A stretch of 64,000 nucleotides of DNA from NCBI GenBank assembly GCA_016927185.1, contig JAFGND010000060.1, forward strand, positions 36,035 through 100,034, given 5' to 3'. The position numbers and the translations under genes were made by a program. Positions 38,301 to 62,187 of this stretch are shown here, in pieces. This DNA comes from Candidatus Coatesbacteria bacterium (lineage in GTDB: Bacteria; JAFGND01). Position 1 is the first letter of the stretch. Each line of letters starts with the position of its first letter. The notes under the pieces were generated by a model, which was not told where the DNA came from, did not search any database, and saw only the letters and a program-made list of their open reading frames with translations.

Positions 38301-39174
38301 GCAACCTGTTCAACTTCAGATCCGCTCCTTCATCCTTGAGGAAATCAGATAGTCTCTCCTGATTATCACACTTCTTGATGAAACCGTTTGCAAGTCTTTC
38401 TATGGATATCTTTACAGCCTCCGACAACTTGTCTCTTATCCTTGCTCCATGATCCAGAGCATCCTGATGATAACGCTCTAATATGCATTCAGAAGCAGTT
38501 TCTATTGACTGGGGCATCCTGCTTGAATGTATCAGTCTGAACATTATGGCAAATTCACTGAAAAGCTTCTCTTCAAGTATTTTCTCAAGATCGAATTCAA
38601 GATATGACAACCTTATCAATCTGCTGCAGTCTCTCAGAATTCTCAACCGCAAGCCGTCTGTAAGTATTCCATACAAATGCTCTTCAGTAAGATTAAGATA
38701 CTCCTGAATACATGAATGCGGGGAAAGCTTTCTTCTTTCTGCTTTTTCCATATCCTCGTTGAAGCCTATTATATAAACAGGAAGATTTGCCTTTCCTCTG
38801 TAATTTATTGGATAATAATTGTTATTGATTATTATGGCTGGCTCAGTTTTCTCAAGTTCATATCCAAGAAGACGCAGAAGTGGTTCAATAAAATAGACTC
38901 TTGTCTCTGATACACCTGTCTCAGTCTTTCCTGTTTCATAAGATATTGAGCTTTTTCCCTTTTCTATTATCCTTTCTCTATGCCTTTTGAAAATCGTCCA
39001 GTGAGCTTGTGCTTCTGTCCATAAATCAATGATGATTTCCTTCAACTTGACTTTTTTCTCAAATCCGAAACTTTCTGATGTCTGATGCGAAACCTGCTCA
39101 TCTCCTTCTGACAGCAGATCCAGTATATCATAGGAAAGTATTGATCCTTCTATGCGTATTGCATTGTATTTCAT
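35347..39174 (-). CDS. drmMI: Large gamma-class N6-adenine DNA methyltransferase (Eco57I/PglX/DrmMI-like) with a degenerate HsdR-N-like N-terminal domain
   Basis: Motif I is VCDIASGSGHMLLNAARR and motif IV is ILGNPPYLG. The N-terminus has ETRVYFIEPLLRLLGYELEK...YGILTDGLRLRILRD without a D/E-x-K triad. Its start shares 1 nt with the SNF2 stop. Confidence 0.65.
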   Translation of the reverse strand: MKYNAIRIEGSILSYDILDLLSEGDEQVSHQTSESFGFEKKVKLKEIIIDLWTEAQAHWTIFKRHRERIIEKGKSSISYETGKTETGVSETRVYFIEPLLRLLGYELEKTEPAIIINNNYYPINYRGKANLPVYIIGFNEDMEKAERRKLSPHSCIQEYLNLTEEHLYGILTDGLRLRILRDCSRLIRLSYLEFDLEKILEEKLFSEFAIMFRLIHSSRMPQSIETASECILERYHQDALDHGARIRDKLSEAVKISIERLANGFIKKCDNQERLSDFLKDEGADLKLNRLLLRLVYKILFLIVIEERNLVFENRTDSSIRDIYYNYYSVTRLRKLSEKKHVYENNYSDLWNALLLTFKIFENGRFGEALEIKPLNGDLFKEQAISILNECCIENRDLLSAICSINTFIDAKTGSTRRINYASLNVEEFGSVYESLLDFKPFINTEAREFALIKGNERSTTGSHYTPDELVQPLIRHSLDYIIEEKRKEADVEKALLSIKVCDIASGSGHMLLNAARRIGLELARVRSRSDQPPPPDLRKAVRDVIRHCIYGVDKNELAVELCRVSLWLEAHCPGEPLSFLDHHIKCGDAIVGLAYESELEKGIPDEAFKKIYGDDADVSRRLLRTNKDERKNAAQQGLDFSDIKSGTDEYIREYLYLDMLPEDTADRIDEKKKRFDEIKNNSGYWRTKQLADIVTAQFFMPKTSDNEQDFVTDGEFRKFLENPGTINQKKAGKASEIAQKKQFFHYFLEFPEIMEQGGFDCILGNPPYLGTQSISGTHGDDYLNWLQTEYYPSGGCDIVTYFLRRDYEIMKENGFCALIATNTISQGRTRESGLFYIVNKQGEIVFAKRSVRWPGIAKVFVSLLSLRKKVDVKTGYFYQPDVNLETEDIRSMKSGKILDNIVVPYISAMLTYYPEDDLLTPYSLDNNKNKMFQGSIFLGEGFLLDENKRNELIEANPKNAEVIFPLLNGKDLNDRYDQSPSRYIINFFDWPEEKAMQYEEPYRIVKDSNENKNHIRENWWLFHRSRPALYNALSKLDGCFVVARARTKYLNFSKTQPIFIFSDGLFVFTSNSFIDYCIVQNSFYDIWVRKYSSTYGIVLRYSPTDCFENFPFPVLTPDMERTLEEIGKTYHEHRRQMMLKMKLGLTKTYNLFHDKDLTVEKVRQESKLEDEDISGSAYQDILKLRELHKNMDDKVLEAYGWTNVNLEHSFHEVDYLPEEDRIRYTISETARREILKRLLELNHKYHEEELKSLPAKISRKKKIVEEDEEELLGE

Positions 39175-42014: not shown

Positions 42015-45000
42015 TATCTCACCTTCTTGAAAATATATTTATATTTGGCAACCCAATCATCCAGATTGTCTTTATAATCATAGACTATAACATGATAACC
42101 AGATTCTTTCAAACTAGTTCTCTGTTCTTTATCTCTTTCTTTCACATCATCCTTTTCATGTACACTTCCATCTATAAAAACAAGAATGTCAGGTTTGTAA
42201 AAGAAATCGCAGCAAGAATATATATCTTTTGTTCTTACCTGGGCGTCATCAGGTAGCTTTAATCCATTTTTAAAAAGGAATTCAAGGAAAACGCTTTCAG
42301 TAGCAGAATTCTTGTCTACCTTGCTTCTTATTCTTTCATGCTGTTCTTCATAGGATTCATTGCTTAGTGTCTGTTTTATTGTAATCCTGCTTTTAATTAG
42401 AACATCAAGCAATTCCTTTATCTTGAATCTGTCTATCTCATTATGATGTCTCTGGTTGTAGTAACTCAACAGATCATCATATGAAGCCAAATCCTTATAT
42501 TCCTCATCATCAAATCTGCATATTTCATAAGCATTGGCAAAGACATTTGTAAACCGCTTAAACTCTTCGGTAAATGATTTCAAGATACCAAGACTGCCTT
42601 CAACATTCTCGAACAAGAGTATATTTCTCTTGTTTCCTTCGCCAATCATTTCCCCACCAATTTCACCTTCTTCAGCATTGTATTCTTTATTAATGCCTGA
42701 TATAAGGGAATAAAGAAAAGTGATATTTCCCCCGCTGTTCCATTCTTCAATATTAATTGCATCAGTCGGTTCAAGATAAATGATGTCAGAAATAAATGTT
42801 GTATATAACTTCACTCTTCTGAAATCTTGGTTACCGGTTTCCTTTTCACTTCCCCAATCTCCGTTTTTGTAATTAAGCAGGAAGCCTTCTTCATCTTTTG
42901 TTGTCCATTTGGAATTCACTCTGTAAAGAAGAGCACTAGGTATATATCTTGCTTTGAAAAGATCGCCTATCAAGATTTCAGTTGCTTTTTCAAGCCCGTC
43001 AGGTGATGCAAAAAGAGTCTTGATTTCATATCCTTTTGAAATCCTGTTTTCTTCTTCGCATGATATTCTTGAACTTCTTTCCGTCTTCATATTCTGCAGT
43101 TCTATGAGATTATTCAGGTTAACAAGAGGCTGGGTATCATTGAATGTTTTCTGGCAGAAAGGACAGATGTCTTTACTGAATTCATCCTTTATCATTATAT
43201 AACCCGTATTCCTGCATACTTTTGCTTTTTCAATCCTGTTCAGAACGTCCCTTTCTTCAGTTGGCAAGATCATTTTTGTTATTCTGTATTTTGAACCTGA
43301 ATGATAAATCAGGTTTTGAGGACCTGACTCATTAATCGCAATACCTCTTGCTCTTGATATGTATTCTCCCTTTATTCCATCTGAAATATATGTCCAGATG
43401 GGAAGCCTTGAGAAATTAAAACCTGGAAGAAAGCCTTCTGATGCAAGATATCTGTAAGGATAAAAATCACTGTTATAGGAAGAACCTTTGTTTTTTGAAT
43501 CATTCATCAAGAAGTCCAGCTGAATTTTAGCTTGTTTCACTCTTATTTCTGCATCTATCCATTTCTCACTTGTTTTTTTCAGGAAATGGTTTTGCATGTC
43601 ATTTAATGCTGTTTTTAATTGTGCATTTGCTGATGAGTAAAGTTCCCTGAATCTCTTCAATGCCATGTCAAAATTATCACAAAGATGATCAATCTGGTTA
43701 TTTATCCATTCAGGATTCAGCCAAGAAAGGTCTTTGGGGTGATTGTTTCTAATATCCTCAGTAACTCTACTGAAGACATCAAAAATCTCTTTCTTTGTTG
43801 CATTATTAAGATTAAGCTGTTGTTTACTTTCTTCTTTTAATGGTAAGCCTTCCTTTTCTATATCAACTATATCTCTTAGTGAATTTCTCAAATCAAGATT
43901 GGCATATGAAAGACAGATTGAATTTAAATGTGTTTCAAGGAGTTCCTTGTTTGTCAAATCCATATTAGCTGTTTTCACTGTACCAGAAACCATTTCCCTT
44001 GAATTTGCAAAATAGTGCCTGTCATGAGGGGAAAAAGGCGTGCAATAAGTGAAAATAATTGCAGGTTGTCCGCTTCTTCCTGCTCTTCCGCTTCTCTGTG
44101 CATAATTAGAAGGACTTGGAGGAACATTCCTCATGTATACCACGTTCAGTGTTGAAATGTCAATTCCAAGCTCCATGGTAGGAGAACAGAACAGAGCATT
44201 GACATTTCCTTTCCTGAACTCTTCTTCAATCTCTCTTCTTTTCTCACTACTTATCTGTCCTGTATGTTCCCTCGCAGTTATAGGAATAAAGAAGGATTCT
44301 CTATAGAGATTCTGAAAATACTCATTAGGAAGGATTTCAAGAGTACTTCTGAAAGGTGTTCTTACAGGATCGGGAAGCACTGTTTTCTCATTTCCTCGCT
44401 TCCATACTATATTATTCAATTCCAGTTGATATGTAAATATCTCTTCATTATTGCTATAAAGTTTGTCTTTTCTCAAAAAACCATTTTTAGAAAGTACATC
44501 AAACAATTCCTCCATGCACAATGCATATTCATCTTTGTTCAATAAATAAGTATTTTCCTTAAGTTCATTTCTCAAATACTTGCCTAGATAACTCTGGAAA
44601 CCAAGGGTTTTCGCATATCTTACTTTTCTTGCTTTTTTAATACTTCTAATTGTAAAAATGTAAGGTTCATCAATCTTGTTATCATTCTCAAATCTATATT
44701 CTTCAGATAAAAGCTCATTAATCCTCTTCATATTGATATCAATTTTACCATAGTTCATCAAGCTTTCACTGTAAATGGCATAGTTCTTTCTGAAATAATC
44801 AAATATTTGAAAGAGTAACTCTTGCCTTTTTTCTTTTGTAATTCCGTTGAATATCTTGCATTTTCCAGTGAACACATCTTCAGATATTTCCTTTAGATTC
44901 TTATACTCAATCTCAAGTAGTGCACATTGTTCCAGATTTGGGAACGCAGTTTTCCATTCAAATCTCAAATCATCAATGATTTTATATAAAAGATAATTTA

Positions 45001-47047
45001 CGAAGACATCCTCGTTTTCCTTCTTTTTTGAAGCTATATCAGATGGACTTCTTGCATAATCCTTCTGTTCGAGATTAAGTGCCTGCAATACATGATTTCC
45101 TATGTTTGAATAATCCAGTCCTTCATTACTGCTTTTTACAGCAGCGTATATTGCAGATCTCAGTCTTATATTCTCTACAAAGCTATTGAAATGACCAGAC
45201 TGGAATGCTGCATCCTGTCTGTTGTCAATAAAACATAATACTTTGCTTTCCTCTTTACTTAGTTCGCTTTTCTGCATGGATTTTAATGTAGATAAGACTA
45301 TGATATCACTGGCAGTGCTTCTTCCTTCGTCTCCAAGTCTAAGTAATTTTGTTCTTTCTTTTGTATATTTGCTATAGAATTCCTTGCTTGTCGGATCAAA
45401 TAACAGATTACAGGGCATATACCAGCCTGAATAATCTAAATCCTTCTCTTGTGAATATGAAAATCTGCAATCACTATTGAAGAATATTCGTCTGGGAAGC
45501 CTTTTTTCTATTTCCTTTTTGATGATCTGTTCAGATCCTTTGAAATCAAACCATTCAACAGGAAGATTCTCCTTCTCAGTATCGTCCCAGACATCCTGAT
45601 ATGGAATTATATATCCTGATTCTTCATTATCTTCCTCATCAAAAGAATCAGCAAATTCCCTCGGAATAAGCTTATCTTTGCTTAATTTCACGCAATAGAA
45701 TTCATAACCAGATAATCTGCTGAAAACAACAGGAAAAAATGTTTTACCGATTTCATTGCCAGCTTCAGCTTTTACATCTAAATAATCCCTGTTAAGAGTT
45801 GCATAAATTGCTCCTTTGGGAGCTATGAATTGATGAAGTTTGAAAGGTAAATATGCTTGATTGAATTTCTTATTTATTTGTGTAATAGAATGAAGCAATT
45901 CCTTTATTCTTGAAATGCAAAAGTCTATATCCCTGCCAATCTTTTCAGCGAGCTTTTCTGCAATTTCATTAAATCTCATCGGTTCATTTCTTCTTAGAAC
46001 TCCGTCCTTTTCAATTAATGCAATTTCATTTTCAAGCCAGCATGCAAATAATGATTTTTTAATATTTTCAGTATTTTCGGTTATTCTTGCACTTGAGAAA
46101 TTGATTATATCTTTTAACAGGTCATTTTTAGAGATACTCTCCGAGTATAGAAAGTACTTGCTTAATGTTTCATCTATTATTGAATTTGTTTCAAAAGGTC
46201 TTCCAAATATCAATGTTGCTACATCAGCTATTTTCTTCTTGTCTTGATGCAAATCCTTTTCAGAAGTCATTGTTGCTGAAGTTCCTATGAATACTAGCTT
46301 TTGTCTTGCTTTTGAACTTAAACGTCTTATTAGTATTGCTACATCTGATCCTTGTCTTCCCCTATAAGTATGCAATTCATCAAGTACAAGAAATTTGAGA
46401 TTGTTGAAAATAGATTCCCTTAAAACGCTTTCACTTGCTCTGGTCAATATTAAATCCAGCATGACATAATTAGTTAGAATGATATCAGGTGGATTTTCCT
46501 GAATCTCATCTTTCTCTACTTTACTTTCTTGTCCTGTATAAATTCTGCAAGAGATTGGATATTTGATTTCAGAATTATTTATGTATCTCTCCATCTCTTT
46601 ATTTTGAGAATTAATAAGTGCATTCATAGGATAGACAACTATACCTTTTATTCCCTTTTCTTTTCGTTTTAATGCATAATTTACAATGGAAAAGAAATAA
46701 ATCAGGGATTTGCCAGAGCCTGTTCCTGATGTTACAATGAAATCCTCTTCTTTTACTCCCTTTTTTATACCTTCTATTTGATGTTGAAATAGTCTGGGGA
46801 TTTTAAATATATTGGATAATTCCTTATCAAGAGATTCTTTTCTACATAATTCTTCAATTGTTGAACCAGTTTTAAAAGCAGGATTGAATTTTATATATGG
46901 TTCAGGAAAACACACTCTCTTTTCAAATTCCTCATCCAAGAAATCTTTTATTTTCTCATTTTTCAAGTTGACAGGTGTTTTGATATAAGATTTATAATCA
47001 TTTCTTATTGATTCATAGATATTAAATATATCAATTGTGTTTTCCAT
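42014..47047 (-). CDS. 1677-aa DExH helicase with a DUF1998-like region and a C-terminal DUF559/Vsr-like endonuclease domain
   Basis: Motif I is IVTSGTGSGKSL, motif II is FLVLDELHTYRG, motif III is GTSATM and motif VI is YAQRSGRAGRSGQ. Further downstream lie YPYRYLASEGFLPGFNFSRLP and CRNTGY...CPFCQ. The C-terminus has CDFFYKPDILVFIDGSVHEKDDVKERDKEQRTSLKESGYHVIVYDY. Confidence 0.7.
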   Translation of the reverse strand: MENTIDIFNIYESIRNDYKSYIKTPVNLKNEKIKDFLDEEFEKRVCFPEPYIKFNPAFKTGSTIEELCRKESLDKELSNIFKIPRLFQHQIEGIKKGVKEEDFIVTSGTGSGKSLIYFFSIVNYALKRKEKGIKGIVVYPMNALINSQNKEMERYINNSEIKYPISCRIYTGQESKVEKDEIQENPPDIILTNYVMLDLILTRASESVLRESIFNNLKFLVLDELHTYRGRQGSDVAILIRRLSSKARQKLVFIGTSATMTSEKDLHQDKKKIADVATLIFGRPFETNSIIDETLSKYFLYSESISKNDLLKDIINFSSARITENTENIKKSLFACWLENEIALIEKDGVLRRNEPMRFNEIAEKLAEKIGRDIDFCISRIKELLHSITQINKKFNQAYLPFKLHQFIAPKGAIYATLNRDYLDVKAEAGNEIGKTFFPVVFSRLSGYEFYCVKLSKDKLIPREFADSFDEEDNEESGYIIPYQDVWDDTEKENLPVEWFDFKGSEQIIKKEIEKRLPRRIFFNSDCRFSYSQEKDLDYSGWYMPCNLLFDPTSKEFYSKYTKERTKLLRLGDEGRSTASDIIVLSTLKSMQKSELSKEESKVLCFIDNRQDAAFQSGHFNSFVENIRLRSAIYAAVKSSNEGLDYSNIGNHVLQALNLEQKDYARSPSDIASKKKENEDVFVNYLLYKIIDDLRFEWKTAFPNLEQCALLEIEYKNLKEISEDVFTGKCKIFNGITKEKRQELLFQIFDYFRKNYAIYSESLMNYGKIDINMKRINELLSEEYRFENDNKIDEPYIFTIRSIKKARKVRYAKTLGFQSYLGKYLRNELKENTYLLNKDEYALCMEELFDVLSKNGFLRKDKLYSNNEEIFTYQLELNNIVWKRGNEKTVLPDPVRTPFRSTLEILPNEYFQNLYRESFFIPITAREHTGQISSEKRREIEEEFRKGNVNALFCSPTMELGIDISTLNVVYMRNVPPSPSNYAQRSGRAGRSGQPAIIFTYCTPFSPHDRHYFANSREMVSGTVKTANMDLTNKELLETHLNSICLSYANLDLRNSLRDIVDIEKEGLPLKEESKQQLNLNNATKKEIFDVFSRVTEDIRNNHPKDLSWLNPEWINNQIDHLCDNFDMALKRFRELYSSANAQLKTALNDMQNHFLKKTSEKWIDAEIRVKQAKIQLDFLMNDSKNKGSSYNSDFYPYRYLASEGFLPGFNFSRLPIWTYISDGIKGEYISRARGIAINESGPQNLIYHSGSKYRITKMILPTEERDVLNRIEKAKVCRNTGYIMIKDEFSKDICPFCQKTFNDTQPLVNLNNLIELQNMKTERSSRISCEEENRISKGYEIKTLFASPDGLEKATEILIGDLFKARYIPSALLYRVNSKWTTKDEEGFLLNYKNGDWGSEKETGNQDFRRVKLYTTFISDIIYLEPTDAINIEEWNSGGNITFLYSLISGINKEYNAEEGEIGGEMIGEGNKRNILLFENVEGSLGILKSFTEEFKRFTNVFANAYEICRFDDEEYKDLASYDDLLSYYNQRHHNEIDRFKIKELLDVLIKSRITIKQTLSNESYEEQHERIRSKVDKNSATESVFLEFLFKNGLKLPDDAQVRTKDIYSCCDFFYKPDILVFIDGSVHEKDDVKERDKEQRTSLKESGYHVIVYDYKDNLDDWVAKYKYIFKKVR

Positions 47048-47324
47048 ATTTCACCTTTCTTAAATCCTTTTAAAATTCGCCATATTAAAAGCATACTTAT
47101 GTCAAGCCAATAATATTTGTTAGTAATGAAAACTAAAAGTATAGCAGACTGATGTTTTGCATCCTGCAATTCAAGGCATTAGAACTGCATTCTATTTTAC
47201 GAAAGTCAATGCACTAACTTAAATTAATAATGCATTAACAATGAAAGAGTAATTCTTAATTTGCTTTCTTTCAAGTATATATGGAGAAATATGAACAGAA
47301 AATTTAAACTTTCACTATCAAGAT

Positions 47325-48125
47325 TTACCTAAATGCCTTCCCCTCAAGAATAAAATTCTTTACATTCTGAATATTTTCCTCATATCTTAAACCTTCAAAT
47401 TTAATTGGTTCTTTAGTTATTGTCTTTTTCCCTTCATATAACCTTAATCCTTCAGGAGATGCAATCCCAAAACGTTTTACATTCATTTTTTGGGCATACC
47501 TACTTGCTTGCTTAAAGGCTCTCTGTATACCAGCATTGCTTTTTATAGTTTTTTTATCCTCAAATAAAAAGACTCCTTTTCCATTACGCAATATGAGAAA
47601 GTCTATATGCCTGTCTTTGAAAAAACCTTCATGGAAATATTGATATTTATAGTCTTTTTCTTTTACAAAACCTAGTGACTTGAGAAATATCCTTTCCATG
47701 ATTTTCTTATCGAACTCAATTTCTTTCTTATTTGTAAAATTTTGTATATCACTGTACCATAGTTCTTTGAATTGAGTGAAATCAAATTTCTTTCCTTCTA
47801 ACACATTATCAATTCCCTTGGCATATTTTTCTATTTTTTCTGCTCCTTTTGATATCAAAAATTCTGCAATTTCCCTATGCTCATTATAACAAGCATACAC
47901 TAAAGCATTTGCTCCCCTTTTATTAATCCTGTTTATTTCTGCACCATTTTCAATTATAATTTTGACTATCTCCCTGTGACCATTTAAACAAGCCATTGTT
48001 AATGGTGAATTTTTTTCTTCATTGTATATATTAACATCTATCCTATTTGAAACAGCTTCTTTCACTTTCTCCAATTTTCCTTTTTCTGCAGCTTCAAACA
48101 AGTCTCTACTATCTTTGTTGTCCAT
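47325..48125 (-). CDS. Ankyrin-repeat protein fused to a C-terminal HsdR-N-like PD-(D/E)xK domain
   Basis: Ankyrin repeats are present (SPLTMACLNGHREIVKIIIENGAEIN, GANALVYACYNEHREIAEFLISKGA). The C-terminus has ERIFLKSLGF...IDFLIL...VFLFEDKK...QASRYAQ...FGIASPEGLRLYE. Confidence 0.65.
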   Translation of the reverse strand: MDNKDSRDLFEAAEKGKLEKVKEAVSNRIDVNIYNEEKNSPLTMACLNGHREIVKIIIENGAEINRINKRGANALVYACYNEHREIAEFLISKGAEKIEKYAKGIDNVLEGKKFDFTQFKELWYSDIQNFTNKKEIEFDKKIMERIFLKSLGFVKEKDYKYQYFHEGFFKDRHIDFLILRNGKGVFLFEDKKTIKSNAGIQRAFKQASRYAQKMNVKRFGIASPEGLRLYEGKKTITKEPIKFEGLRYEENIQNVKNFILEGKAFR

Positions 48126-48180
48126 AAAAACTTCCTTTCTTTTTTTCCCTTGATTTTATACTATAACCAACAAAACCTTC

Positions 48181-48588
48181 CTATTTTTCTGAATCCTTTA
48201 ATAAATCCTTATTCATCAATGCTTTATATAGCTCCAGTGAGATTTCATAAATATGCTTTTCAAGATATTTCTGGTCTTTCCAGTCTTTTCTTGACAAGAA
48301 TTCATTTGAGAACTTCTCAAAAGGCTCATTACTTGCTTTATGGTTTTCAAAAAGGTAAAACAGTGTCAAAAGAACGTGATCCCCTAAAGATGAAGTATAC
48401 CATGCTGGAGGGATATATGAATTGAAAACTTTCTGATTGAATTGCATGGAAAACTTAGCTTGTGGAATAAAATCAAAGAAATCATTTTCCGCAATCCCAC
48501 AGGATGGGCAAACAATGCCTCTTTTGAACGGAATATAATGAGCCTGACATTTGCTGCATTGATGATTATAAAATATATGATGTGTCAT
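48181..48588 (-). CDS. Hypothetical Zn-ribbon protein
   Basis: CSKC-x14-CPSC is at the N-terminus. I recognise no family. It lies downstream of the McrC-like gene on the same strand. Confidence 0.4.
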   Translation of the reverse strand: MTHHIFYNHQCSKCQAHYIPFKRGIVCPSCGIAENDFFDFIPQAKFSMQFNQKVFNSYIPPAWYTSSLGDHVLLTLFYLFENHKASNEPFEKFSNEFLSRKDWKDQKYLEKHIYEISLELYKALMNKDLLKDSEK

Positions 48589-48674
48589 CTGTTCTCCTTT
48601 AATACGGTTTTCTCAAACAGCTCACAATTATAAACAAACAGATCCTTAATATTGATATGTACTTAAAATTCCCT

Positions 48675-49598
48675 TCATTTTAATCCCATTTTTTCTATTG
48701 CTTCATTTATTCCATTTCTGACATTTTCCTTCAAGTCCATGCCAATAGCTATTATGCAGACATTGTTTTCTGTTGTTTCTGAGAACTCTATTTCGCTCTT
48801 GGGATACAAGAGATATGCTATTTTGCAATCCTGTTGAGTTGCATAAAAAGAAACCTGGTAAATATCATCATTTGATGGTTCACTTGCATCCTTGTACTTT
48901 GTATCTAAAATGTATTTTGTCTCAGTTTCAAGATGCCTCAGCAACAAATCAATCTTGCAATCCTTTTTACCAAATCTGAATTCCTTCTGTGCTTCTATAT
49001 CCAAGAATTCCTTCATATGCTTCTTGAAGTATGAAGCAACAAATTTTTCAAATAACAAGGGCATGTCTATTACAAAAGGGATCATCCTTTCATCACCATA
49101 TTCATGAGAAGGGGAGAGTAAATCAAGAAAGAATGCACACAGATTATGAATGGGAACATAATCCTCATTTAGCCTGTTATAATTCAATACATGGCAATCA
49201 TGAGATGTAAAATGCTGCAAATTTATACATCCTGCAAGTATACGGAAACAATACATTACGTTGTTAGAGACAAAGTCATCTTTTATTATATTCCTGAGAA
49301 GATATAGAGTATAAAGGATTATCCTGTTTTCTTTTATATCAATTGTATTAAGTCTGTACAGACATGGGATTTTAAGTAATACCGGATTACTTATCATGTC
49401 ATTGATTTTCAGTCTACCCCTTAGATAGTCCTCATTTCCGTCATATCCTAAATAAGTCTTATATAGCCCCTTCTTTATCCTTTCATCAACCAAGTCTGTC
49501 AGATGCTTTGCTATCCTGTTTAATATCTCGTCAAAAGTCTTTGTTTCTGTTTGACCAATTATTTCAAAAATATCAAGCTCATATACGTAATCAAGCAT
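48675..49598 (-). CDS. McrC-like PD-(D/E)xK restriction-system component; no McrB partner present
   Basis: YLRGRLKINDMI, IPFVIDMPLLFEKFVASYF and KIDLLL...YILDTKYKD...DDIYQVSFYA are present. At 307 aa it is shorter than the McrC proteins I recall. Confidence 0.55.
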   Translation of the reverse strand: MLDYVYELDIFEIIGQTETKTFDEILNRIAKHLTDLVDERIKKGLYKTYLGYDGNEDYLRGRLKINDMISNPVLLKIPCLYRLNTIDIKENRIILYTLYLLRNIIKDDFVSNNVMYCFRILAGCINLQHFTSHDCHVLNYNRLNEDYVPIHNLCAFFLDLLSPSHEYGDERMIPFVIDMPLLFEKFVASYFKKHMKEFLDIEAQKEFRFGKKDCKIDLLLRHLETETKYILDTKYKDASEPSNDDIYQVSFYATQQDCKIAYLLYPKSEIEFSETTENNVCIIAIGMDLKENVRNGINEAIEKMGLK

Positions 49599-49667
49599 CT
49601 CAAATACATTCTTTATCGGGATCTTGGGATTAACTATTACTACCCCGAAGATGAGAGATTGAAAGAA

Positions 49668-50408
49668 ATGACGAAGTTGGAAACAACAATGTCTGAAAAT
49701 ATTGGAATATTTGAAAATGCAACTAACAAAATGCTAGAACAACTTGATAAGACTTCAAATACACTTCTGGATGCATCAAACAACATGACGGAACCTGTAA
49801 ATAATCTTAATGAAACCTTGAAATCTTTTGATGAGCTTAATAAAACATCCCAAGACTTGGTTATAAATGCCAATGATATCTATGGAAGGATTAACAAATC
49901 TAACGAATCTATTAATGATTTGCTTGGAAAACTGGATTCTCAATTATATAAGATAGCTGAAGATGATAAAAACAGAATTGATGCATTGAAGGAATTTACA
50001 GACAAGCTTGTTACAATCATTTCAGAGCTGAAACCTGTCAAAGATGGAATTAGTAATAATTTGGCTGATTTTCACAAGCAGTTGAAAGATGGTCAGAAAA
50101 ATATGGAAGATATGATTTTGAATATCGAAAACCTAAAAACTTCATTAGATTATTTAAACGCAACTATAGAAAAAATGAAAGAATCTCTGGAAGAGATAAA
50201 TACAAAACGTACTGAAAAAGTCATCAGTATGTTTGAGGAATGGGATAATCTGACAATCAGATTGACAAACGTAAATGAAAAAATTTCTGAGTATCAGAAA
50301 AATCTTAAGGATATGATTAATATGGAGAGAAGGGAATATAATAATTTGAATATAGTAATGGAGAATTTTGCAAATCATATAAAATCGCTGGTTGAAAATG
50401 CTCAATAG
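49668..50408 (+). CDS. Coiled-coil protein with no TM segment
   Basis: The sequence is heptad-like and rich in N, K, E and L throughout (LNETLKSFDELNKTSQDL...IENLKTSLDYLNATIEKMKESLEEI). The start is taken at the ATG at 49668, because the track start (TTG at 49551) overlaps the McrC-like gene. Its stop is within 1-17 nt of the next start. Confidence 0.45.
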   Translation: MTKLETTMSENIGIFENATNKMLEQLDKTSNTLLDASNNMTEPVNNLNETLKSFDELNKTSQDLVINANDIYGRINKSNESINDLLGKLDSQLYKIAEDDKNRIDALKEFTDKLVTIISELKPVKDGISNNLADFHKQLKDGQKNMEDMILNIENLKTSLDYLNATIEKMKESLEEINTKRTEKVISMFEEWDNLTIRLTNVNEKISEYQKNLKDMINMERREYNNLNIVMENFANHIKSLVENAQ

Positions 50409-51225
50409 AATGACTGAATATAATTATTCTGACGAAAGCCCTTGGTGGCAGGCATTAGGTGATGCATTTGTAGGATTTGCTGGATTGATGATGGGCATTT
50501 TTATCTTATTTTATGCTTTATCTACATTACTGATGAAAGTAACAGATGAGCAAAATAAAGTTACTAACGAAATGAAGAAGAAATTAAACATGATAATAGA
50601 AAGATCTGTAATAAAAGACAATATATTGTTTGGAAGTGGAAGTCATTCTTTAAAACCTTATGCTTATTATGAAATAAGGATCGCTTTAGAAAAACTCAGA
50701 AAAAATTATCAAAAAAAAACCAATGAGTTTATAAATCAAAAAGAAGCACCTCCAACAATTAGATATCTTGTTATTATTGGACATACTGATTCTGACCCGA
50801 TTGGAAGATCAAAAAAAAATGCAAAAGACAATTGGGATTTATCTACTCGTCGTGCAAGAGCTATTGCTGATTTCCTATCCAACAGTGAGTATGGAAGAGA
50901 AATATTAAGACAAAATGGTTTTCAAGAAGTTAATATTATGATTGCAGGAAGATCCTATTTTGAACCGCATATTGATAATATAAAATCATTTTTAAAAAAT
51001 GATAGAAAATACAATAAATATGTCTGGTGGTATAAAGAGAAGTATGTCAAAACAAATTTAATGAGTGAAGAGGATTACTTAAAGAGAGAACCTGTTTTTA
51101 TCTGGGAATTTCTGTATAATAATTATACAAATGAAGCATTACTAGATAGAATTGAAGATTTTGCTAATAATACTAAAAGAAAAATGGAAAAAAATCGAAG
51201 AATTGAATTCGCAATAGAAATGTAG
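50392..51225 (+). CDS. MotB/OmpA-family peptidoglycan-binding membrane protein
   Basis: The N-terminal TM is preceded by Asp (WWQALGDAFVGFAGLMMGIFILFYAL). The OmpA-like block is LFGSGSHSLKP...LVIIGHTDSDPIG...NWDLSTRRARAIADFL...NRRIEFAI. Confidence 0.7.
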   Translation: MKMLNRMTEYNYSDESPWWQALGDAFVGFAGLMMGIFILFYALSTLLMKVTDEQNKVTNEMKKKLNMIIERSVIKDNILFGSGSHSLKPYAYYEIRIALEKLRKNYQKKTNEFINQKEAPPTIRYLVIIGHTDSDPIGRSKKNAKDNWDLSTRRARAIADFLSNSEYGREILRQNGFQEVNIMIAGRSYFEPHIDNIKSFLKNDRKYNKYVWWYKEKYVKTNLMSEEDYLKREPVFIWEFLYNNYTNEALLDRIEDFANNTKRKMEKNRRIEFAIEM

Positions 51226-51292
51226 AGATAAATAGCAATCTTTATGAAATTTTTCAAGTTTACCCCTTTGTCAAGACTAAAATTTACCTTTG

Positions 51293-51821
51293 CTAATGTG
51301 TAACATTTCCTGAACCCACTATCATCCTTTTGCGTAAGTAAAAGGATTTGTGATTGTTAATACTACCATTTTCCTCACCATATACCTCATCTGGTGTCCT
51401 GTAATTCAATGATTGATGAGGTCTTATCTCATTATAGAACCAGAAGTAACTGTTTATGCTTTCCTGCATTCCTTCAGATCTTTATATTCCTTGAGATAAA
51501 CCTCCTCGTATTTCAAACTCCTCCTGATTCTTTCTATGAACTCATTATCTATTGCTCTGCCTTTACCATCCATGCTTATTCGTATCCCATGTTCCTTGAG
51601 TTTCCCTGTGAAATCATTACTACTGAACTGGCTACCCTGATCAGTATTGAATATCTCTGGCGTGCAATATCTATCTATTGCTTCTTCCAGCTGTTTATCT
51701 GGTTGGGATGAACTTCATATATGTTTGACAATTCTGCTATTGTCTTCTCGCCCTTGATATCTTCTAAGGTTACCCTCACCTTAAAGGCGTTTTCATAATG
51801 TTTTCTCTTCTTCTTTTTCAT
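51293..51821 (-). mobile_element. Decayed IS3-family insertion sequence remnant (OrfA HTH fragment joined to an rve C-terminal fragment; internally deleted and frameshifted)
   Basis: My minus-strand translation gives MKKKKRKHYENAFKVRVTLEDIKGEKTIAELSNIYEVHPNQINSWKKQ* (HTH_Tnp_1-like). In another frame it gives PEIFNTDQGSQFSSNDF...ISMDGKGRAIDNEFIERIRRSLKYEEVYL...*. After a further frameshift it gives SYFWFYNEIRPHQSLNYRTPDEVY. The N-terminal part of the DDE core is missing. Confidence 0.8.
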
Positions 51822-52005
51822 AGTCCCTTTTCTAAACTCCTTGACTTTTTATTCAAGTACTTCTACACCTTAGAACATAGTACTATTTTCGAGGTGCAGC
51901 TCATACATTAGGTCAAAAGAGGGTGAATAATTAGGTTTGAATAATTGATCAAGATTTATAAACGATATTTTCAGTATAAAATTAGCTAAATGAAAGGATT
52001 GAAGA

Positions 52006-53360
52006 ATGAACAAGCAGGATAAAGATTTATTGGATGGAGCAGAAAAAGGGGATTTAAAGAAAGTCAGGGAAGCAATAGAAGAAGGAGCAAACATAGCAGC
52101 AATTAATTCTTATGGTTCGAATGCACTAATTTTAGCAGCTTCGAGAGATCACTATGAAGTAGCAAAGTATTTAGTGGAAAAAGGCTGTTATGTAAATGTA
52201 AAACAAAAACATGGATGGACACCATTAATGTTTGCTTCTGAAAACGGAAATAAAAATATTGCAGAGTTACTATTAAATAATGGTGCTGAAATTGATGCAA
52301 AAGCATTTTTTATCAAGGTGAAGGTTTATTTGAAGAAACACCTTTAATGATAGCTTTACGGAACGGTAAGAAAGAGGTAGCAAACTTACTGATAGAAAAA
52401 GGGGCAAATATTTTTGCAGTAGACAAAATGCGAAACTCAGTTCTACATTATGCTGTGGAGGGAGATCAATCAGAAATTATTTGCGAATTAATCAGAAAAG
52501 GTATAGATGTAAATCTTAAAGGACAAGCAAATTTTACTCCTCTTTTTTTAGCTTGTGACTTAGGGCATATAGAATCAGTGAAAGTATTATTAGAAAATGG
52601 AGCGGATATTGATTTTTATGCTGAAGTAGAAAGGATAGAGTTTGAAATAACAGCTTTAAAACTAGCATGTTTTACTGAGCAAAAAGAAATAGTAGAGCTA
52701 TTATTAAAAAAAGGTGCAAAAGTAAACCAGGCAACAAAGAATGGAGTAACTGCATTAGTAGATGCTTGTAATGCTGATAATAAAGAAATTGCAGAAATGT
52801 TGATTTCATATGGAGCAACTAAAATAGAACCTTATACATCTGAAATAAACAACTTCTTGGATGGAAAAGGATTTAATATTAGTCTTTTTCCTGAAATTTG
52901 GTATTTAAATATGCCTTTTGATGATGAAAAAGCATTTGAAAACAGAATTATGGAAAGAATTTTTTTCAAGATCCTTGGTTTAATTCCTGATGAAGATTAT
53001 ATATATCAATATAGTGTAAAAGATGTATGGGTAGGTTCAGAGAGGAAACCTATAAGGGTTGATTTTTTCATTCTTCACGATGGTGAAGGAGTTTTCCTGT
53101 TTGAGGATAAATCAAGTATTACTAATGATGATGAACTTATGAGTGCAGTTTATCAAGCAAGATCTTATGCATTACAGACTGGAATAGAACGTTTTGGAGT
53201 AGCTGCTAGAGAAGGAATATGGTTATTTGAAAATAACCTAAAGACATTCAATAGGCTTACAGATAAACCGATTAAATTTGAGAGTTTAAAGTCTGAAGAA
53301 AATAGAAAGAAAATAAAGAGATTCATATTTGAAGGTGAGTTTGAAGAGATAAAATATTAA
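52006..53360 (+). pseudogene. Ankyrin-repeat / HsdR-N-like PD-(D/E)xK fusion gene split by a frameshift in a T6 run (52306-52311)
   Basis: ORFs 52006..52347 and 52347..53360 are both ankyrin-repeat coding. The second frame is already open from 52296 and reads QGEGLFEETPLMIALRNG, which continues the repeat pattern. The C-terminus (ERIFFKILGL...VDFFIL...VFLFEDKS...QARSYAL...FGVAAREGIWLFE) is a paralogue of gene 47325..48125. Confidence 0.6.
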
Positions 53361-53395
53361 CAGCATCCTTCTGCCAAGCTGAAATGTTCCTCTGC

Positions 53396-53859
53396 TAATC
53401 TATCCCCATAGACATCATGGACTGACTTATTAAAAACTGTAATTTACATATTTTAATGCTGTTTTTTTGAAGATTTGACAACAGGTTTAAAGATTCAAGT
53501 CAAAAAACCAAATTCGAATTTAGTGTTGCTTTTTGCAGTTAGGGACAGGTAGGAACGTATTAGAACTGCTTTGATATCTCCCAATAAGGATGTTATTGAA
53601 ACTTATGAGATGTGCAGAAGATTCCTGAAAGAATTCTCTGATTGATTACAAATGTTTCTTCTGACAAAAGCAGCAAATTGGCGGGACATTTTTAAGGATC
53701 TGTTTCTAGCTCCCAGTTATGAAACAAAAATGGCTTTCAAGATAGCAAGGGAATTACTGAAAGTTTGTTGAAAAGAGGTTTACTTTATTTGAAATTGAGT
53801 TTTCTGTTATTATAATAATTCCTCTATAACTCAGTCCATCATGTCCAGGGGATAGATTA
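53396..53859. repeat. 464-bp non-coding element bounded by roughly 30-bp imperfect terminal inverted repeats (MITE-like)
   Basis: The left arm is taatctatccccatagacatcatggactga (53396-53425). The reverse complement of 53831-53859 is taatctatcccctggacatgatggactga. About 26 positions are identical, including a perfect 12-mer at the outer ends. The track lists no ORF between the arms, and I found only short ORFs by eye. Confidence 0.5.
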
Positions 53860-54377
53860 AACTCAGCAGATTTTTCTATTGACACGAATGAAGCGAATAT
53901 TTAAACGAAAAAGATTAACTCTCAATATAAAAAATAGGAATAACTATGAAACTTCCATTAAAGCGCTTGTTAGTAAGATTTCCGCTGCACGATAATGAGT
54001 GTAATGGAACATGCTTCATAGATGCTCCTGCCAAGAATTCAAAACAGGGATATTGAATTGAGGAGAAAAACAAAAGCAAGAGATCTGATGAAATTGAAGC
54101 AGGTAAATCTCCTTGCCTGTTAGAGAAAGTATCATTTATGGCAGATTATAAGATAGAAAATAGCATATCACATCCATACTCAAGTAATGAACTATTTTCT
54201 GATGCAGAAGTAAATTGAACAAAAAGAAGGAATGGTATGAAAAGAATGGTTGTTTTCTTTTAGAGAAATGAACCGTAAGGAAGATAAAATACTGATTAAT
54301 TATCATGATAAACATGATGGTATTGATTCAAAGGAGATTGAAATAATAATGAAAAGATTTCTGAAAATAAATTTTTC

Positions 54378-57300
54378 ATGCAATTAGGTAAAAGGAGGTT
54401 TACTTTGGAATATCAATTATCATACAAAGACAAAGAAGATCTAATATTAGAATTAAAATCATATGTAAGAAAGGAACACTGTTCTGACGAAGTACTGCAT
54501 GAAAAAATAACAAAATGGAAAGAGGATATAAATCCTCTATACGGTTTTGAAGCAATACTTATAAAGGAAGTACAAAGACTCTCAAAATATTTATCATCTG
54601 ATGATCTCGATCATAATATGAAAAAAATGGTGAGAGGATCCCTTAGCTACATCCTTGATATTAACAAAAAAAGGAAATTACCTGATGATTTGAAATTACT
54701 TAATGAAACATTTGTCTGCTGTTTTACAGTTAATGAAATATTAAAGGCATTTGGACAATCAATAGATTATGATATTCCTAGGTTAACAAAACATGAAGAA
54801 GGAGATGCAAGACAATTGTTCCAGAAGATGTCCACAACAAGTATCTGTTCTGATGAAGAATTAATAGAGAAAGTAAAATGTGTTTTAAGCAAACTCATAG
54901 ATTATAATTCCCTTGGACTTATGCTCAGGTTGAAAAGCAACATTGAATTTCTGATTGGTATCGTAACAAATCAACAAAAAGACAATGAAACATTAGATTA
55001 TACTAGAGGTGCTTTAAATTATTTCATAAAGGAATTTGATGTTATAAATGATACTCTGGGAATAATAGGATATATAGATGATTTCTATATTACCGAGATT
55101 GCTATTGAAATTACAGGGGAGGACAGAACCGAATTCAATGATGCTCTAAACAATATTCTGAATAAGTATCCTTTCATTAATAATATAATTATGGATGATG
55201 GAACACATGTATGCAAATTATCTGAGTTTATGTTGGTCAATTTTGCAATTTATGATGTTATGTTTAAGAATAATGAGATTTTTAATACGGTTGTTCTGAT
55301 AGAACCTTTTCATGGTTTTACTCATTTCCTGGTTGGATTTATTGCATCATTGTGCCTGATAAATTCTACAAACAGAAGCAAAATATCCATTGATTTCTTC
55401 AAGAAAGGACAGAAAGTAATAGTTGATAATGATAGTTCTGTAGTTGCTGAGTATACAGGAATAACTGAAATCAAGAATCAGTCTTTTTTCGGACTGAAGC
55501 AAGAAAAACAAGTAAAGGGAATAAAAGGAGATCAAATCATTTATCTTCCTGTTTCTCATATGCACAGATTAACCCTAGTAGATTCTTCAAGGATTCCCAA
55601 GGGACGTATAATTCCTGACCTTTCAAAATCAAGCAAACCTGTTTCTCCTTACACATATATTTTTCAGGAACAAATAAATCCCGGATCAATAACCATGGAT
55701 AAATATATTATTATAGTAATGCAAATTTCAGATGCATGGTTTCTATCAAATGAGATCTCCATCTATGGTCATCCATTGAAGGAAGTAATTCCAGTAGGTC
55801 ATCTTAATAACAAAGGAACTTTAACAACCTGGTCAAGGAGTTTTGGTACGACACAACCTATCATCGTTTTTATATCAGATATAGATGTAGCATGTTCGTT
55901 TCTTAACGAAAACATAGAAAAATGTCATTCAATAATAATAGATGCTGCTAACAGAAATAGAAGCAAAATATCAAGTTTGAAGCAGATTGTTCAAAAAAAT
56001 GTTAATACTCTCATTTTTTCTACATCAAGGAATGTTGAAGAACTTGATATTATCAAGGATGACAGAATTGATATATGGGAATGGACAAAAGACAGTCTAT
56101 CTGCACTACTCTGGTCATCCTGCAAATCTCCTGAAATAGAAGAATCTTCAAGTATTTTTTCAAGGAATGAAAACACTATTTATAAAAGCATGAAATGTAT
56201 TCCTGTAATAAAGAATATCAGCTTTCCTTTTTCAGAAGATATTTTTGATGCTGTAAGATCTATTAATTATTTAGCCAAATCTGCTGATAACAAGATTGAA
56301 GCACTCAATGAAGCAGCAAAAAGAACCTTCTCATTAATGAATAGATTACTTAAATGCACCTTTCCTTTAGGCAAATCTCCTGCTTTACTGGAGAGGATTA
56401 ATAACAAAATAAGAGATATTAAAGATATTTCAGAAAAATCAATATACCTATCAGAAGATGCAAGAAACAATATTAAAAAAGCAATGATTATGCTAGAAGA
56501 AATAACAAATATTTTTACAACCAAGAATCCCAAAGCCGAAGTCATGGAAGAGATATTGTCTAAGAATAAGAACCTATCATTTGTTTGTCCAGATAAGGAA
56601 ATAGCTAGCTCAGTCAAGGAAATCTATAAAAAAAGACTATATGTTATCAGCAGTTTCGACGAGAATGAGAATTTCCCTGAAGGAGTAATTATACCAGGTT
56701 GGTTCAGAAAGGAGATAATGAGAAAGATGCTGTTCCCTTCGATTGCCGATCCCTTATTTCTTTTGTTATATGATTCTGAAAACAATTGGTACAAGAATTT
56801 TTCAGATATACTACAGAATGAACAGAGAAAGAGAATTGCAATGTCAAATAAATCTTCACTTTTTTCAGGATTTAAAACCAGGAAATCGCTTCCTGAAAAA
56901 GACAAAACTGATATTATTAATTCCTTTATGGAGATAGATGAAATTCAGAAAATTATTGACAAAATTGATGAAATAGATATATCAGAAGGAGAAACAGGAA
57001 CTAGCGAAAGAATTCCAGCGACGCTTATTTTGTTTGAAGAAGGTTATAAAGGATTCTTTACTGATTCTTTCAGGGCTAATACTGTGACGCATCTACTGGA
57101 TGTCATTCCTGAATATTTTGATGAAAGTGATGAGATCAGGACAAAAAGAATAAGTGATCTTAGACCTGGGGATACCTTACTATTCCATGCTGGATCAGAT
57201 TGGGATGTCATCAAGATAACAGCAGACAAGTTACTGGGAGCAGGAGTAAGGGATATGTCATATTTATGGAGGAAAGCAATTTTCAGTTATCTTGAATCCG

Positions 57301-57713
57301 GAAAACTTACATATAACGATCTATGGGAAAAGCTAAAACAAAAAGGATGCTTGCTACAGGAATCAACAATAAGATTATGGACAGAGGATGATTATTTCAT
57401 GATATCTCCCCAGGATTATGAAAAATATGTTCCAATGATTGCTGAAGTTACAGATAACAAACTGTTAAAAAACAATATAACTGAAGTAATTTCAGCTATT
57501 TATATTGTACGGGGAGCTCATATTAAAGCTTCCCATCAATTAGCAAAAGAAGTGAAAGAACTTGTAGTAAGAAAACTGAAGGAAGGAGACAGGGATGCCT
57601 CTAATTTTAACATAAGATCTGATGTCATTATGACAAGAATATTATTAATTGATGACAAGAAGACAATGATAAAAAAGAACAATGTAAATAGATTATATAA
57701 TACGGATATATAA
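54378..57713 (+). CDS. drmE: Large protein of unknown function in the position of DISARM class 2 DrmE
   Basis: The 1111-aa ORF has no motif I can recognise. The assignment rests only on size and synteny, directly upstream of the C5-MTase, DrmA and DrmB. Confidence 0.45.
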   Translation: MQLGKRRFTLEYQLSYKDKEDLILELKSYVRKEHCSDEVLHEKITKWKEDINPLYGFEAILIKEVQRLSKYLSSDDLDHNMKKMVRGSLSYILDINKKRKLPDDLKLLNETFVCCFTVNEILKAFGQSIDYDIPRLTKHEEGDARQLFQKMSTTSICSDEELIEKVKCVLSKLIDYNSLGLMLRLKSNIEFLIGIVTNQQKDNETLDYTRGALNYFIKEFDVINDTLGIIGYIDDFYITEIAIEITGEDRTEFNDALNNILNKYPFINNIIMDDGTHVCKLSEFMLVNFAIYDVMFKNNEIFNTVVLIEPFHGFTHFLVGFIASLCLINSTNRSKISIDFFKKGQKVIVDNDSSVVAEYTGITEIKNQSFFGLKQEKQVKGIKGDQIIYLPVSHMHRLTLVDSSRIPKGRIIPDLSKSSKPVSPYTYIFQEQINPGSITMDKYIIIVMQISDAWFLSNEISIYGHPLKEVIPVGHLNNKGTLTTWSRSFGTTQPIIVFISDIDVACSFLNENIEKCHSIIIDAANRNRSKISSLKQIVQKNVNTLIFSTSRNVEELDIIKDDRIDIWEWTKDSLSALLWSSCKSPEIEESSSIFSRNENTIYKSMKCIPVIKNISFPFSEDIFDAVRSINYLAKSADNKIEALNEAAKRTFSLMNRLLKCTFPLGKSPALLERINNKIRDIKDISEKSIYLSEDARNNIKKAMIMLEEITNIFTTKNPKAEVMEEILSKNKNLSFVCPDKEIASSVKEIYKKRLYVISSFDENENFPEGVIIPGWFRKEIMRKMLFPSIADPLFLLLYDSENNWYKNFSDILQNEQRKRIAMSNKSSLFSGFKTRKSLPEKDKTDIINSFMEIDEIQKIIDKIDEIDISEGETGTSERIPATLILFEEGYKGFFTDSFRANTVTHLLDVIPEYFDESDEIRTKRISDLRPGDTLLFHAGSDWDVIKITADKLLGAGVRDMSYLWRKAIFSYLESGKLTYNDLWEKLKQKGCLLQESTIRLWTEDDYFMISPQDYEKYVPMIAEVTDNKLLKNNITEVISAIYIVRGAHIKASHQLAKEVKELVVRKLKEGDRDASNFNIRSDVIMTRILLIDDKKTMIKKNNVNRLYNTDI

Positions 57714-57857
57714 CTATATCACGTATCAACTACATGGATTTAATTTCAATGACTTCTATCAATAATGAATAGAAAGAGAAAGAACTACAATTAACGGAAA
57801 GGTTCGATAAGCAATAGTGACAAATCACTAATACAGTATTATGAATGGAATTATGAT

Positions 57858-58820
57858 ATGAAAAAAACAGATATAAAACTGTTTGACCTTTTTTGTGGAG
57901 GAGGAGGTAGTTCCTGGGGGGCATTCATGCTGGGGATAGATCCCATAGCAGCATTAGATAAATGGGATATTGCAGCTTCCACATATAGCTTAAATTTCAG
58001 GAATGCAAAAGTTTTCTGTACTGAAGCAGGGAGTATTTCGCTTAACTACATTGCAAAAGAAATAGGTAGAATTGATCTTCTTATAGCATCTCCTGAATGT
58101 ACAAACCATAGTCTGGCAAGAGGAAATAAACCTCAATGTGAAAGAAGCAAGGAAACAGCATTTGAAGTAATCAGGTTTGCCAGGTTTTTTAAACCAAGAT
58201 GGCTGGTGGTAGAGAATGTAGAACAGATGCGAAAATGGAAACGATTTGAAGAATGGAAAAGAGAATTGGAAAAGATTGGTTACAAGATAAAAATAAATAT
58301 ACTTGATTCTATTTTTTTTAATGTTCCCCAGACAAGACGCAGACTCTTTATTATTGGAGATTCTGAGGAATTCCCGGAATTTCCCAGTCAGCAAAAGAAG
58401 ACTGATATAAAAATAAAAGATATAATAAATTACAGAGAACCAGCAAAAGGCTGGAATTTCACACAATTGGTAACCCCCAATAGATCAGTCAAGACTTTAA
58501 AAAGAGCACAAAAAGCGATTATGGAACTAGGAGATACAAAACCTTTCTTGCTTGTATATTATGGAATGGGAAAAGGATATCTGGATCTAAACCAGCCTTT
58601 CAGGACAATCACAACACATGATAGGTTTGCATATGTGGTTCCAACAGAAAATGGTCATAAAATAAGAATGCTTCAACCTGAAGAACTGGCAAAAGCTATG
58701 GGATTTCCAGATGAACATAGATGGGCAACTATAAACAAGCAGGAAAAAGTGAAAATAATAGGAAATGCTGTCTGTCCTCCTGTAATGAGAAGCGTTCTTG
58801 AGAAATTGATAAATGGATAA
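57858..58820 (+). CDS. drmMII: DNA (cytosine-5) methyltransferase (DrmMII-type position)
   Basis: Motif I is LFDLFCGGGGSSWG and motif IV is the variant LLIASPECTNHS. Motif VI is WLVVENV, motif VIII is PQTRRRLFIIG and motif X is IIGNAVCPPV. Confidence 0.85.
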   Translation: MKKTDIKLFDLFCGGGGSSWGAFMLGIDPIAALDKWDIAASTYSLNFRNAKVFCTEAGSISLNYIAKEIGRIDLLIASPECTNHSLARGNKPQCERSKETAFEVIRFARFFKPRWLVVENVEQMRKWKRFEEWKRELEKIGYKIKINILDSIFFNVPQTRRRLFIIGDSEEFPEFPSQQKKTDIKIKDIINYREPAKGWNFTQLVTPNRSVKTLKRAQKAIMELGDTKPFLLVYYGMGKGYLDLNQPFRTITTHDRFAYVVPTENGHKIRMLQPEELAKAMGFPDEHRWATINKQEKVKIIGNAVCPPVMRSVLEKLING

Positions 58821-58846
58821 TCAATTATTGAAGGTTAGGTGAATGA

Positions 58847-62176: not shown

Positions 62177-62187
62177 AAGGAAATATA

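Follow-up and report, generated by a model that had tools for sequence, protein, structure and literature searches.

We analyzed two genes, here called copies A and B (Table 1), in a 64,000-nt stretch of the Candidatus Coatesbacteria bacterium assembly GCA_016927185.1 (contig JAFGND010000060.1, positions 36,035 to 100,034; this whole stretch is called the window). The two genes appear to be old paralogues of a cytoplasmic two-domain protein, in which an ankyrin array of three or eight repeats is followed by a flexible linker and a predicted PD-(D/E)xK DNA endonuclease. Motifs and modelled structure lead us to assign the C-terminal domain, with high confidence, to the PD-(D/E)xK nucleases of HsdR N-terminal type, and its predicted active site is intact. 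A defence function is plausible from the context of the genes, which lie between an ARMADA-like system and a DISARM class 2 system.

Copy A consists of three ankyrin repeats (residues ~8-97), a flexible linker (101-113), two linker helices, and a PD-(D/E)xK core (~133-232). Its protein is 42% identical to the product of the second open reading frame (ORF) of B over 269 amino acids (E = 9e-66), and the extreme N-termini of A and B are also alike (36% over 94 amino acids). The ankyrin match is strong in both (Pfam, E from 1e-19 to 1e-29, with 1e-19 for A), and a hidden Markov model (HMM) of the repeat counts three repeats in A and 3 + 5 = 8 in B, the chief difference between the copies being five internal ankyrin repeats. 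Both carry the motif ERIF(L/F)K, (I/V)DF(L/F)IL, GVFLFEDK, QA(S/R)xYA, RFG(I/V)A, EG. The alignment, the Pfam matches, and the motif agree with a sequence-only reading of this DNA, made earlier without database searches, which had described paralogues with N-terminal ankyrin repeats and a C-terminal core of ~130 amino acids. No other ORF with ankyrin repeats or with this C-terminal domain was found in an HMM scan of the 64-kb window. PADLOC and NCBIfam match the ankyrin part alone of the two proteins, and the C-terminal domain has no PADLOC match. The PADLOC candidate PDC-M72A was rejected as an identity for A and B because a whole-profile match is absent and the repeats alone align (protein residues 9-106 against profile positions 201-298 of 392).

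The same reading had treated positions 52006-53360 as one gene, but these 1355 nt are not a single ORF. A -1 frame change in a run of six T's (52306-52311) splits copy B in two; the first ORF stops 12 codons later, and its stop codon (TAA, 52345-52347) overlaps the ATG of the second (TAATG), from which a version with five repeats could still be translated alone. With one T added to the run, B encodes a protein of 451 amino acids with an unbroken array of eight repeats, the repaired junction reading ...AEIDAKAFFYQGEGLFEETPLMIALRNGKK..., which is a normal ankyrin repeat. The same split is present in an independent Logan contig from run SRR13394437, which is identical over 7.7 kb (window positions 47208-54896). 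Programmed frameshifting at the run was considered and rejected, since A-TTT-TTT departs from the canonical X-XXY-YYZ heptamer and transcriptional slippage usually takes a run longer than six T's.

The C-terminal nuclease domain

Alignments of 60, 40, and 27 members of the domain family described below share the invariant columns E135, D175, E189, K191, Q206, Y210, and G226 (numbering of A). In both copies, strands beta2 and beta3 carry the catalytic D...(D/E)xK, as D175 and E189-D-K191 in A and as their equivalents in B. The conserved elements follow the order helix E, D, ExK, QxxxY, which corresponds to motifs I-III of the HsdR endonuclease domain. The Pfam family HSDR_N (PF04313) scores 18.5 bits in A and 18.1 bits in B, which is below its gathering cut-off of 25.1; it is above threshold in one relative (P0041, 26.1 bits) and matches 6 of 60 relatives at E < 1e-3, and HSDR_N_2 (PF13588) matches two relatives (6.9e-5). 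A profile of 40 sequences, compared with the sequences in the PDB, returned HsdR chains only (E = 0.04-0.075), and a profile of A and B alone returned no match there. In the best match, the HsdR fragment 3h1t, all five motif residues align (NEAD, RADYLL, VVEAKP, QQAKDYA), with E135 at NEAD and Q206 and Y210 at QQAKDYA. The alignment with EcoR124I was off-register relative to the known catalytic residues of that enzyme, and was not used; we relied on 3h1t alone.

The 166-amino-acid C-terminal region of A was modelled by AlphaFold2 with the 40-sequence alignment (predicted local distance difference test, pLDDT, of 85; predicted TM-score, pTM, of 0.77). The model has an alpha-beta-beta-beta-alpha-beta-beta core (helix 35-51, strands 56-65, 68-80, and 83-90, helix 97-113, strands 118-123 and 126-131), with two helices before it and a C-terminal helix after it. 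The top Foldseek matches in the PDB are nearly all PD-(D/E)xK nucleases (probability up to 0.99), including Cas4 SSO0001, MGME1, RecE, and the DrdV nuclease domain (TM-score 0.54-0.59), Shedu SduA (TM-score 0.51), and BsaXI, as well as the HsdR entries 2w00 and 3h1t. Against BFVD, four matches fall below 1e-3, one of them a phage 'Type I restriction enzyme R protein, N-terminal domain containing protein' (E = 7e-4); over the two databases the top matches are mostly PD-(D/E)xK nucleases, many with a probability of 0.97-1.00. The modelled fold and its matches, together with the motifs and the HsdR-only matches among PDB sequences, thus bear out the earlier proposal of an HsdR-N-type PD-(D/E)xK module with D and E-D-K intact. 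In a model of full-length A (pLDDT 77), the linker 101-113 is below 50 and disordered, which fits two independently folding domains.

The likeness to the N-terminal endonuclease domain of HsdR (3h1t, 2w00) extends to the motifs D, ExK, and QxxxY, the glutamate of the upstream helix, and the fold, but the sequence similarity is marginal and below the Pfam gathering score. Unlike type I HsdR, A and B have no helicase/translocase motor (266 and 451 amino acids, with no helicase domain), and no hsdM or hsdS gene was found in their neighbourhood.

Relatives of the nuclease and rarity of the fusion

An exhaustive profile search with the two C-terminal domains against 1.84 billion representative proteins (threshold E <= 1e-3) yielded a family of 131 proteins including A and B. 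The other 129 are distant: the best of them reaches 1e-14, whereas A and B alone fall below 1e-30. The exhaustive HMM search was required because word-indexed searches were insensitive, the C-terminal domain alone retrieving only itself and the 40-sequence profile five proteins. Among the 129 relatives, neither Pfam, run on the top 60, nor a motif scan covering the whole family of 131 found ankyrin repeats, and the architecture, which the sequence-only reading had suggested looking for in other genomes, is therefore rare. Searches of GTDB representative genomes, IMG/VR, PLSDB, and GenBank phages revealed no C-terminal-domain relatives; in plasmid and phage searches, the relatives of EVE type gave two weak Deinococcus plasmid matches and no phage match. 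Copy A also weakly matches a phage family of 495 amino acids, phrog_37753, over residues 101-254 (E = 2e-5).

The most frequent partner of the nuclease is an EVE-like domain. Pfam EVE is found in 15 of the top 60 relatives, and a subgroup of ~510 amino acids, which has no N-terminal Pfam match, has an N-terminal domain homologous to that of the EVE group (hhalign 99.7%, E = 2e-25). An HMM of the EVE-like domain matches 64 of the 131 members; among other relatives, 38 have short N-termini and 27 have other partners, such as thioredoxin (5), DUF3320 (3), HhH, EAL, and globin. The same HMM, built from the relatives, has no match in A or B. The nuclease thus appears, from these domain arrangements, to be a portable effector module that is most often tethered to an EVE/PUA-like reader. 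The search also exposes a little-described family of EVE-like plus HsdR-type nucleases, comprising 131 representative clusters; no functional name was found in the look-ups made for the ~130 family clusters (P0003-P0131). The ~510-amino-acid subgroup carries in addition an N-terminal region of ~200 amino acids without a Pfam match.

Proteins that join an EVE/PUA domain to a nuclease are known, or predicted, to be modification-dependent (type IV) restriction enzymes (Lutz et al. 2019, PMC6765204). Copies A and B share with them a homologous C-terminal nuclease (E from 1e-14 to 1e-3) with the same invariant residues, and the order of recognition domain, linker, and C-terminal nuclease; one subgroup of EVE relatives also shares part of the linker, a 'KGFD(I/F)S..LP' segment. 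In A and B, however, ankyrin repeats stand in place of the modified-base reader (EVE, SRA, or PUA-like), and with this replacement a protein ligand is expected rather than a modified base.

The earlier reading did not recognize the fusion as a named defence protein. This holds insofar as no ankyrin repeats occur in the 129 relatives, and a literature search linking ankyrin to DISARM, phage defence, or nucleases brought up no bacterial defence protein built in this way, but fusions of ankyrin repeats with a restriction-endonuclease fold are known: an ankyrin array is joined to Tox-REase-8 in Wolbachia and Amoebophilus (Zhang et al. 2012, PMC3482391). The fusion in A and B is unique among the sequences searched, and the design principle of ankyrin repeats plus a restriction fold is itself not new.

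The context of the relatives was read on four contigs of 17-45 kb, five other contigs of 1-2.6 kb having no usable neighbours. On one of the four (L009, 3542-7348), the relative and the S24 (UmuD/LexA-like) peptidase gene downstream of it share 4 nt, with a Y-family polymerase gene two genes further on; on another (L014, 734-11356), a DnaE2-like polymerase gene lies ~6 kb upstream of the EVE-like plus HsdR-type nuclease. This nearness of two of the four relatives to SOS-mutagenesis genes may be due to chance.

Genomic setting

The window is AT-rich (~34% GC). A defence island of ~30 kb starts immediately after a tRNA-Asn(GTT) gene (33845-33919), which suggests a tRNA-linked integration hotspot; a search of the remaining window for the 3' end of tRNA-Asn, as a possible att repeat, gave no significant copy. 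To the left of A and on the same strand is a four-gene block (34380-47047) that is ARMADA-like: ArmC, ArmA, and ArmB are the composition of ARMADA that the block matches (PMC13463889), and no UvrD-like ArmD was found in it. To the right of B, and again on the same strand, is a DISARM class 2 system (54378-64000). An apparently ORF-free 1.8 kb after DrmA is an artefact of the ORF listing, which omits DrmB because it has no stop codon inside the window. Each ankyrin-nuclease gene is thus upstream of, and co-oriented with, a DISARM-family system, A at a distance of 278 bp and B at a distance of 1017 bp.

Table 1 Positions of the genes and other features discussed, numbered along the window
Feature	Position	Strand	Remarks
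DUF4268 protein	34380-35306	minus	
MmeI/Eco57I-type methyltransferase	35347-39174	minus	
SNF2 helicase, DpdE/DrmD-like	39174-42014	minus	E = 1e-142 and 1e-80
YprA/DruE-like helicase (ArmC-like)	42014-47047	minus	1677 amino acids; weak C-terminal MZB (DUF1998) and DUF559 (Vsr-like) matches
Copy A	47325-48125	minus	Intact ORF, 266 amino acids
Copy A, predicted nuclease core	47328-47729	minus	Residues ~133-266; alpha1(E)-beta-beta(D)-beta(ExK)-alpha(QxxxY)-beta-beta plus C-terminal helix
Zn-ribbon protein	48181-48588	minus	135 amino acids
McrC-like nuclease	48675-49598	minus	Pfam McrBC PF10117, 1e-34; NCBIfam McrC, 1.7e-22
Coiled-coil protein	~49689-50408	plus	No evident membrane segment; weak ZorA-tail matches
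OmpA/MotB-like protein	50392-51225	plus	Membrane-anchored; ZorB models, E = 2e-12; gene overlaps coiled-coil gene
IS3-family remnant	~51250-51870	minus	~620 bp, internally deleted; OrfA N-terminus and rve fragments in three frames; rve_3 match
Copy B, first ORF	52006-52347	plus	113 amino acids; ankyrin repeats 1-3
Copy B, second ORF	52347-53360	plus	337 amino acids; ankyrin repeats 4-8 and C-terminal PD-(D/E)xK domain, motif residues all intact
DrmE	54378-57713	plus	DrmE_C, E = 2e-9
C5 methylase (DrmMII)	57858-58820	plus	
DrmA	58847-62176	plus	E = 3e-220
DrmB	62188 to beyond window end	plus	MZB, 28 bits

The 1 kb between B and DrmE (53361-54377) has no ORFs and no Rfam match at the gathering threshold. 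A 26-nt inverted repeat (53405-53430 and 53826-53851) lies within it, 85% complementary and with its arms 395 nt apart. A promoter and terminator scan of 46.8-54.6 kb performed no better than on shuffled sequence and was not used.

The two copies point outward, and the genes between them are, as had been described, an McrC-like gene, a Zn-ribbon gene, a coiled-coil gene, an OmpA-like gene, and an insertion sequence (IS) remnant, the last directly upstream of copy B. The further suggestion of an inverted duplication or a bracketed module did not survive nucleotide comparison. Copy A and the reverse complement of B are 64% identical over 693 nt and 72% identical over 54 nt, both inside coding sequence, and the flanks of A and B have no similarity beyond chance and no terminal repeats. 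With identity this low and restricted to coding sequence, and with unlike flanks, the pair reflects an old duplication or two separate acquisitions rather than a recent inverted duplication or a repeat-bounded element, and a composite transposon or a cassette bounded by inverted repeats was ruled out on the same evidence. The interior, too, is heterogeneous, being two divergent transcription units plus the IS remnant rather than a single unit. A and B are thus a pair of diverged paralogues that chance has placed back to back, not a structure bracketing the genes between them.

The McrC-like, Zn-ribbon, and A genes are on the same strand with gaps of 86 and 55 bp, and A may be co-transcribed with the other two; whether they belong with A is uncertain. 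A D...DxK motif in the McrC-like protein is apparently intact, as judged by eye. No McrB GTPase gene accompanies the McrC-like gene, and the divergent coiled-coil gene begins ~90 bp from its start. The coiled-coil and OmpA/MotB-like pair looks, by its profile matches, like part of a Zorya-like stator or like a two-gene module of its own.

Proposed function and competing explanations

The analysis shows how the domains are arranged, that the catalytic motifs are intact, which fold is predicted, that a domain has been exchanged relative to homologues, and that the genes lie in a defence island; nuclease activity, a DNA substrate, a protein ligand, and a role in defence are inferred. The ankyrin array would bind a protein, most simply a phage-encoded or DNA-bound one; binding would recruit or activate the nuclease, and the activated nuclease would cut DNA. 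That the array senses a phage protein is plausible. The proteins probably have a role in defence, alone or as accessories of the neighbouring systems. The more specific proposal, which we prefer as the most likely model and to which we give about even credence, is that they are stand-alone sensor-effector defence nucleases derived from a type IV-like restriction enzyme by replacement of its EVE reader with an ankyrin array. A further reading is put forward tentatively, and we regard it as rather doubtful: the array would switch on the HsdR-type nuclease in response to a phage protein, giving a restriction enzyme triggered by protein that arose when a repeat array took the place of the base-reading EVE domain, or it would instead recognize the neighbouring ARMADA or DISARM helicase complexes and serve as their detachable nuclease; the three and eight repeats would then represent diversified ligand specificity.

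RNase L is the classical protein of eukaryotic immunity that combines an ankyrin sensor with a nuclease. The logic proposed for A and B is the same, with an ankyrin array as ligand sensor controlling a C-terminal nuclease, but RNase L is a KEN/HEPN RNase with a pseudokinase dimerization domain and the ligand 2',5'-oligoadenylate (2-5A), and its effector domain has no homology to that of A and B. Ankyrin arrays can bind small molecules too, as in RNase L, which weighs against a protein ligand. Several further points count against a stand-alone defence nuclease. The architecture is a singleton, and its enrichment near defence genes is not scorable; one of the two copies, B, is frameshifted. All four relatives with usable contigs are solitary genes among housekeeping genes, outside defence islands and in this respect unlike A and B. 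With contexts as ordinary as these, the wider family is not established as defence-linked, and their own context is the only argument for A and B. No Foldseek match in the PDB falls below E = 1e-3, and the links to HsdR are weak one by one, with sub-threshold Pfam scores in A and B and E-values of 0.04-0.07 for PDB sequences. RNase L is among the proteins listed in PMC3710099.

An alternative is that the two proteins are accessory nuclease subunits, A of the ARMADA-like system and B of DISARM class 2, whose ankyrin repeats dock on the complex and whose nuclease supplies or regulates cleavage in the manner of DrmC. In favour of this, each of the two related DISARM-family systems has one copy immediately upstream of it and on its strand; the two large systems are related to each other much as the two small genes are paralogous; and no DrmC is visible in the window, which ends inside DrmB. 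The intergenic gaps of 278 and 1017 bp are, however, not operon-tight, and the ArmC-like protein apparently has a Vsr/DUF559-like C-terminus of its own (a weak match). Upstream of the sole retrievable relative of the ArmC-like protein (L007, 42% identity), the 955 nt of sequence contain no ankyrin-nuclease gene, and the published descriptions of ARMADA and DISARM name no such component (PMC13463889, PMC9142583). We consider this explanation unlikely; with the two versions combined, an accessory role in the neighbouring systems is as unlikely or slightly less so. A scan of GTDB genomes with the ArmC-like protein gave no match, and the 955 nt upstream of the L007 gene hold only a small divergent helix-turn-helix-like gene, assigned by eye.

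Two further explanations are improbable, and to about the same degree. In one, A is the third gene of an operon with the McrC-like and Zn-ribbon genes, a restriction-like module without McrB, whose part as the partner for recognition or assembly would fall to the ankyrin protein. The common strand and short gaps of the three genes fit this, as do the strong PF10117 match without an McrB gene and the divergent coiled-coil gene close to the McrC-like start, but copy B has neither an McrC nor a Zn-ribbon partner. The only homologue of the Zn-ribbon protein (49% identity; locus L006, 1248-1637, on a JGI metagenome contig) adjoins an NAD synthase gene with no McrC or nuclease gene nearby, and no comparative support of any kind was found. 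In the other, the copies are decaying relics of a fusion that had a single origin, in a lineage of which few members have been sampled, and that is now disappearing and has no current function. The frameshift of B in two assemblies, the IS remnant abutting B, and the absence of the architecture from all other sequences searched would be expected of relics. Copy A is intact, however, and at 42% identity both copies retain every catalytic and structural invariant of the family, which argues for long purifying selection; the frameshift is moreover a single base, and the five-repeat version of B could still be made from the TAATG overlap.

A host-directed or inter-bacterial toxin effector is very improbable: ankyrin and restriction-fold fusions are documented in endosymbionts, with the ankyrin repeats of these bacterial proteins N-terminal to the restriction-endonuclease-fold domain as in A and B, and the window is AT-rich with IS debris, but the Tox-REase-8 proteins, which were proposed as host-directed effectors of endosymbionts (PMC3482391), are a different nuclease family whose signature (GxxxQ, DD, QxK) differs from E, D, ExK, QxxxY, so that A and B are not members, and A and B have no evident signal peptide or secretion-associated domain when their sequences are read directly, lie between two defence systems, and have as nuclease relatives EVE-reader fusions typical of cytoplasmic restriction enzymes.

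The practical weight of these findings is limited by the singleton fusion, by the frameshift in one copy, and by the fact that such domain shuffling is common in defence islands. If the nuclease is active, a restriction-type module usually aimed by a modified-base reader can instead be aimed by a protein-binding repeat array, and the proteins would parallel in bacteria the sensor and nuclease logic of RNase L. Because ankyrin arrays lend themselves to engineering, an active fusion would offer a possible handle for protein-triggered nucleases.

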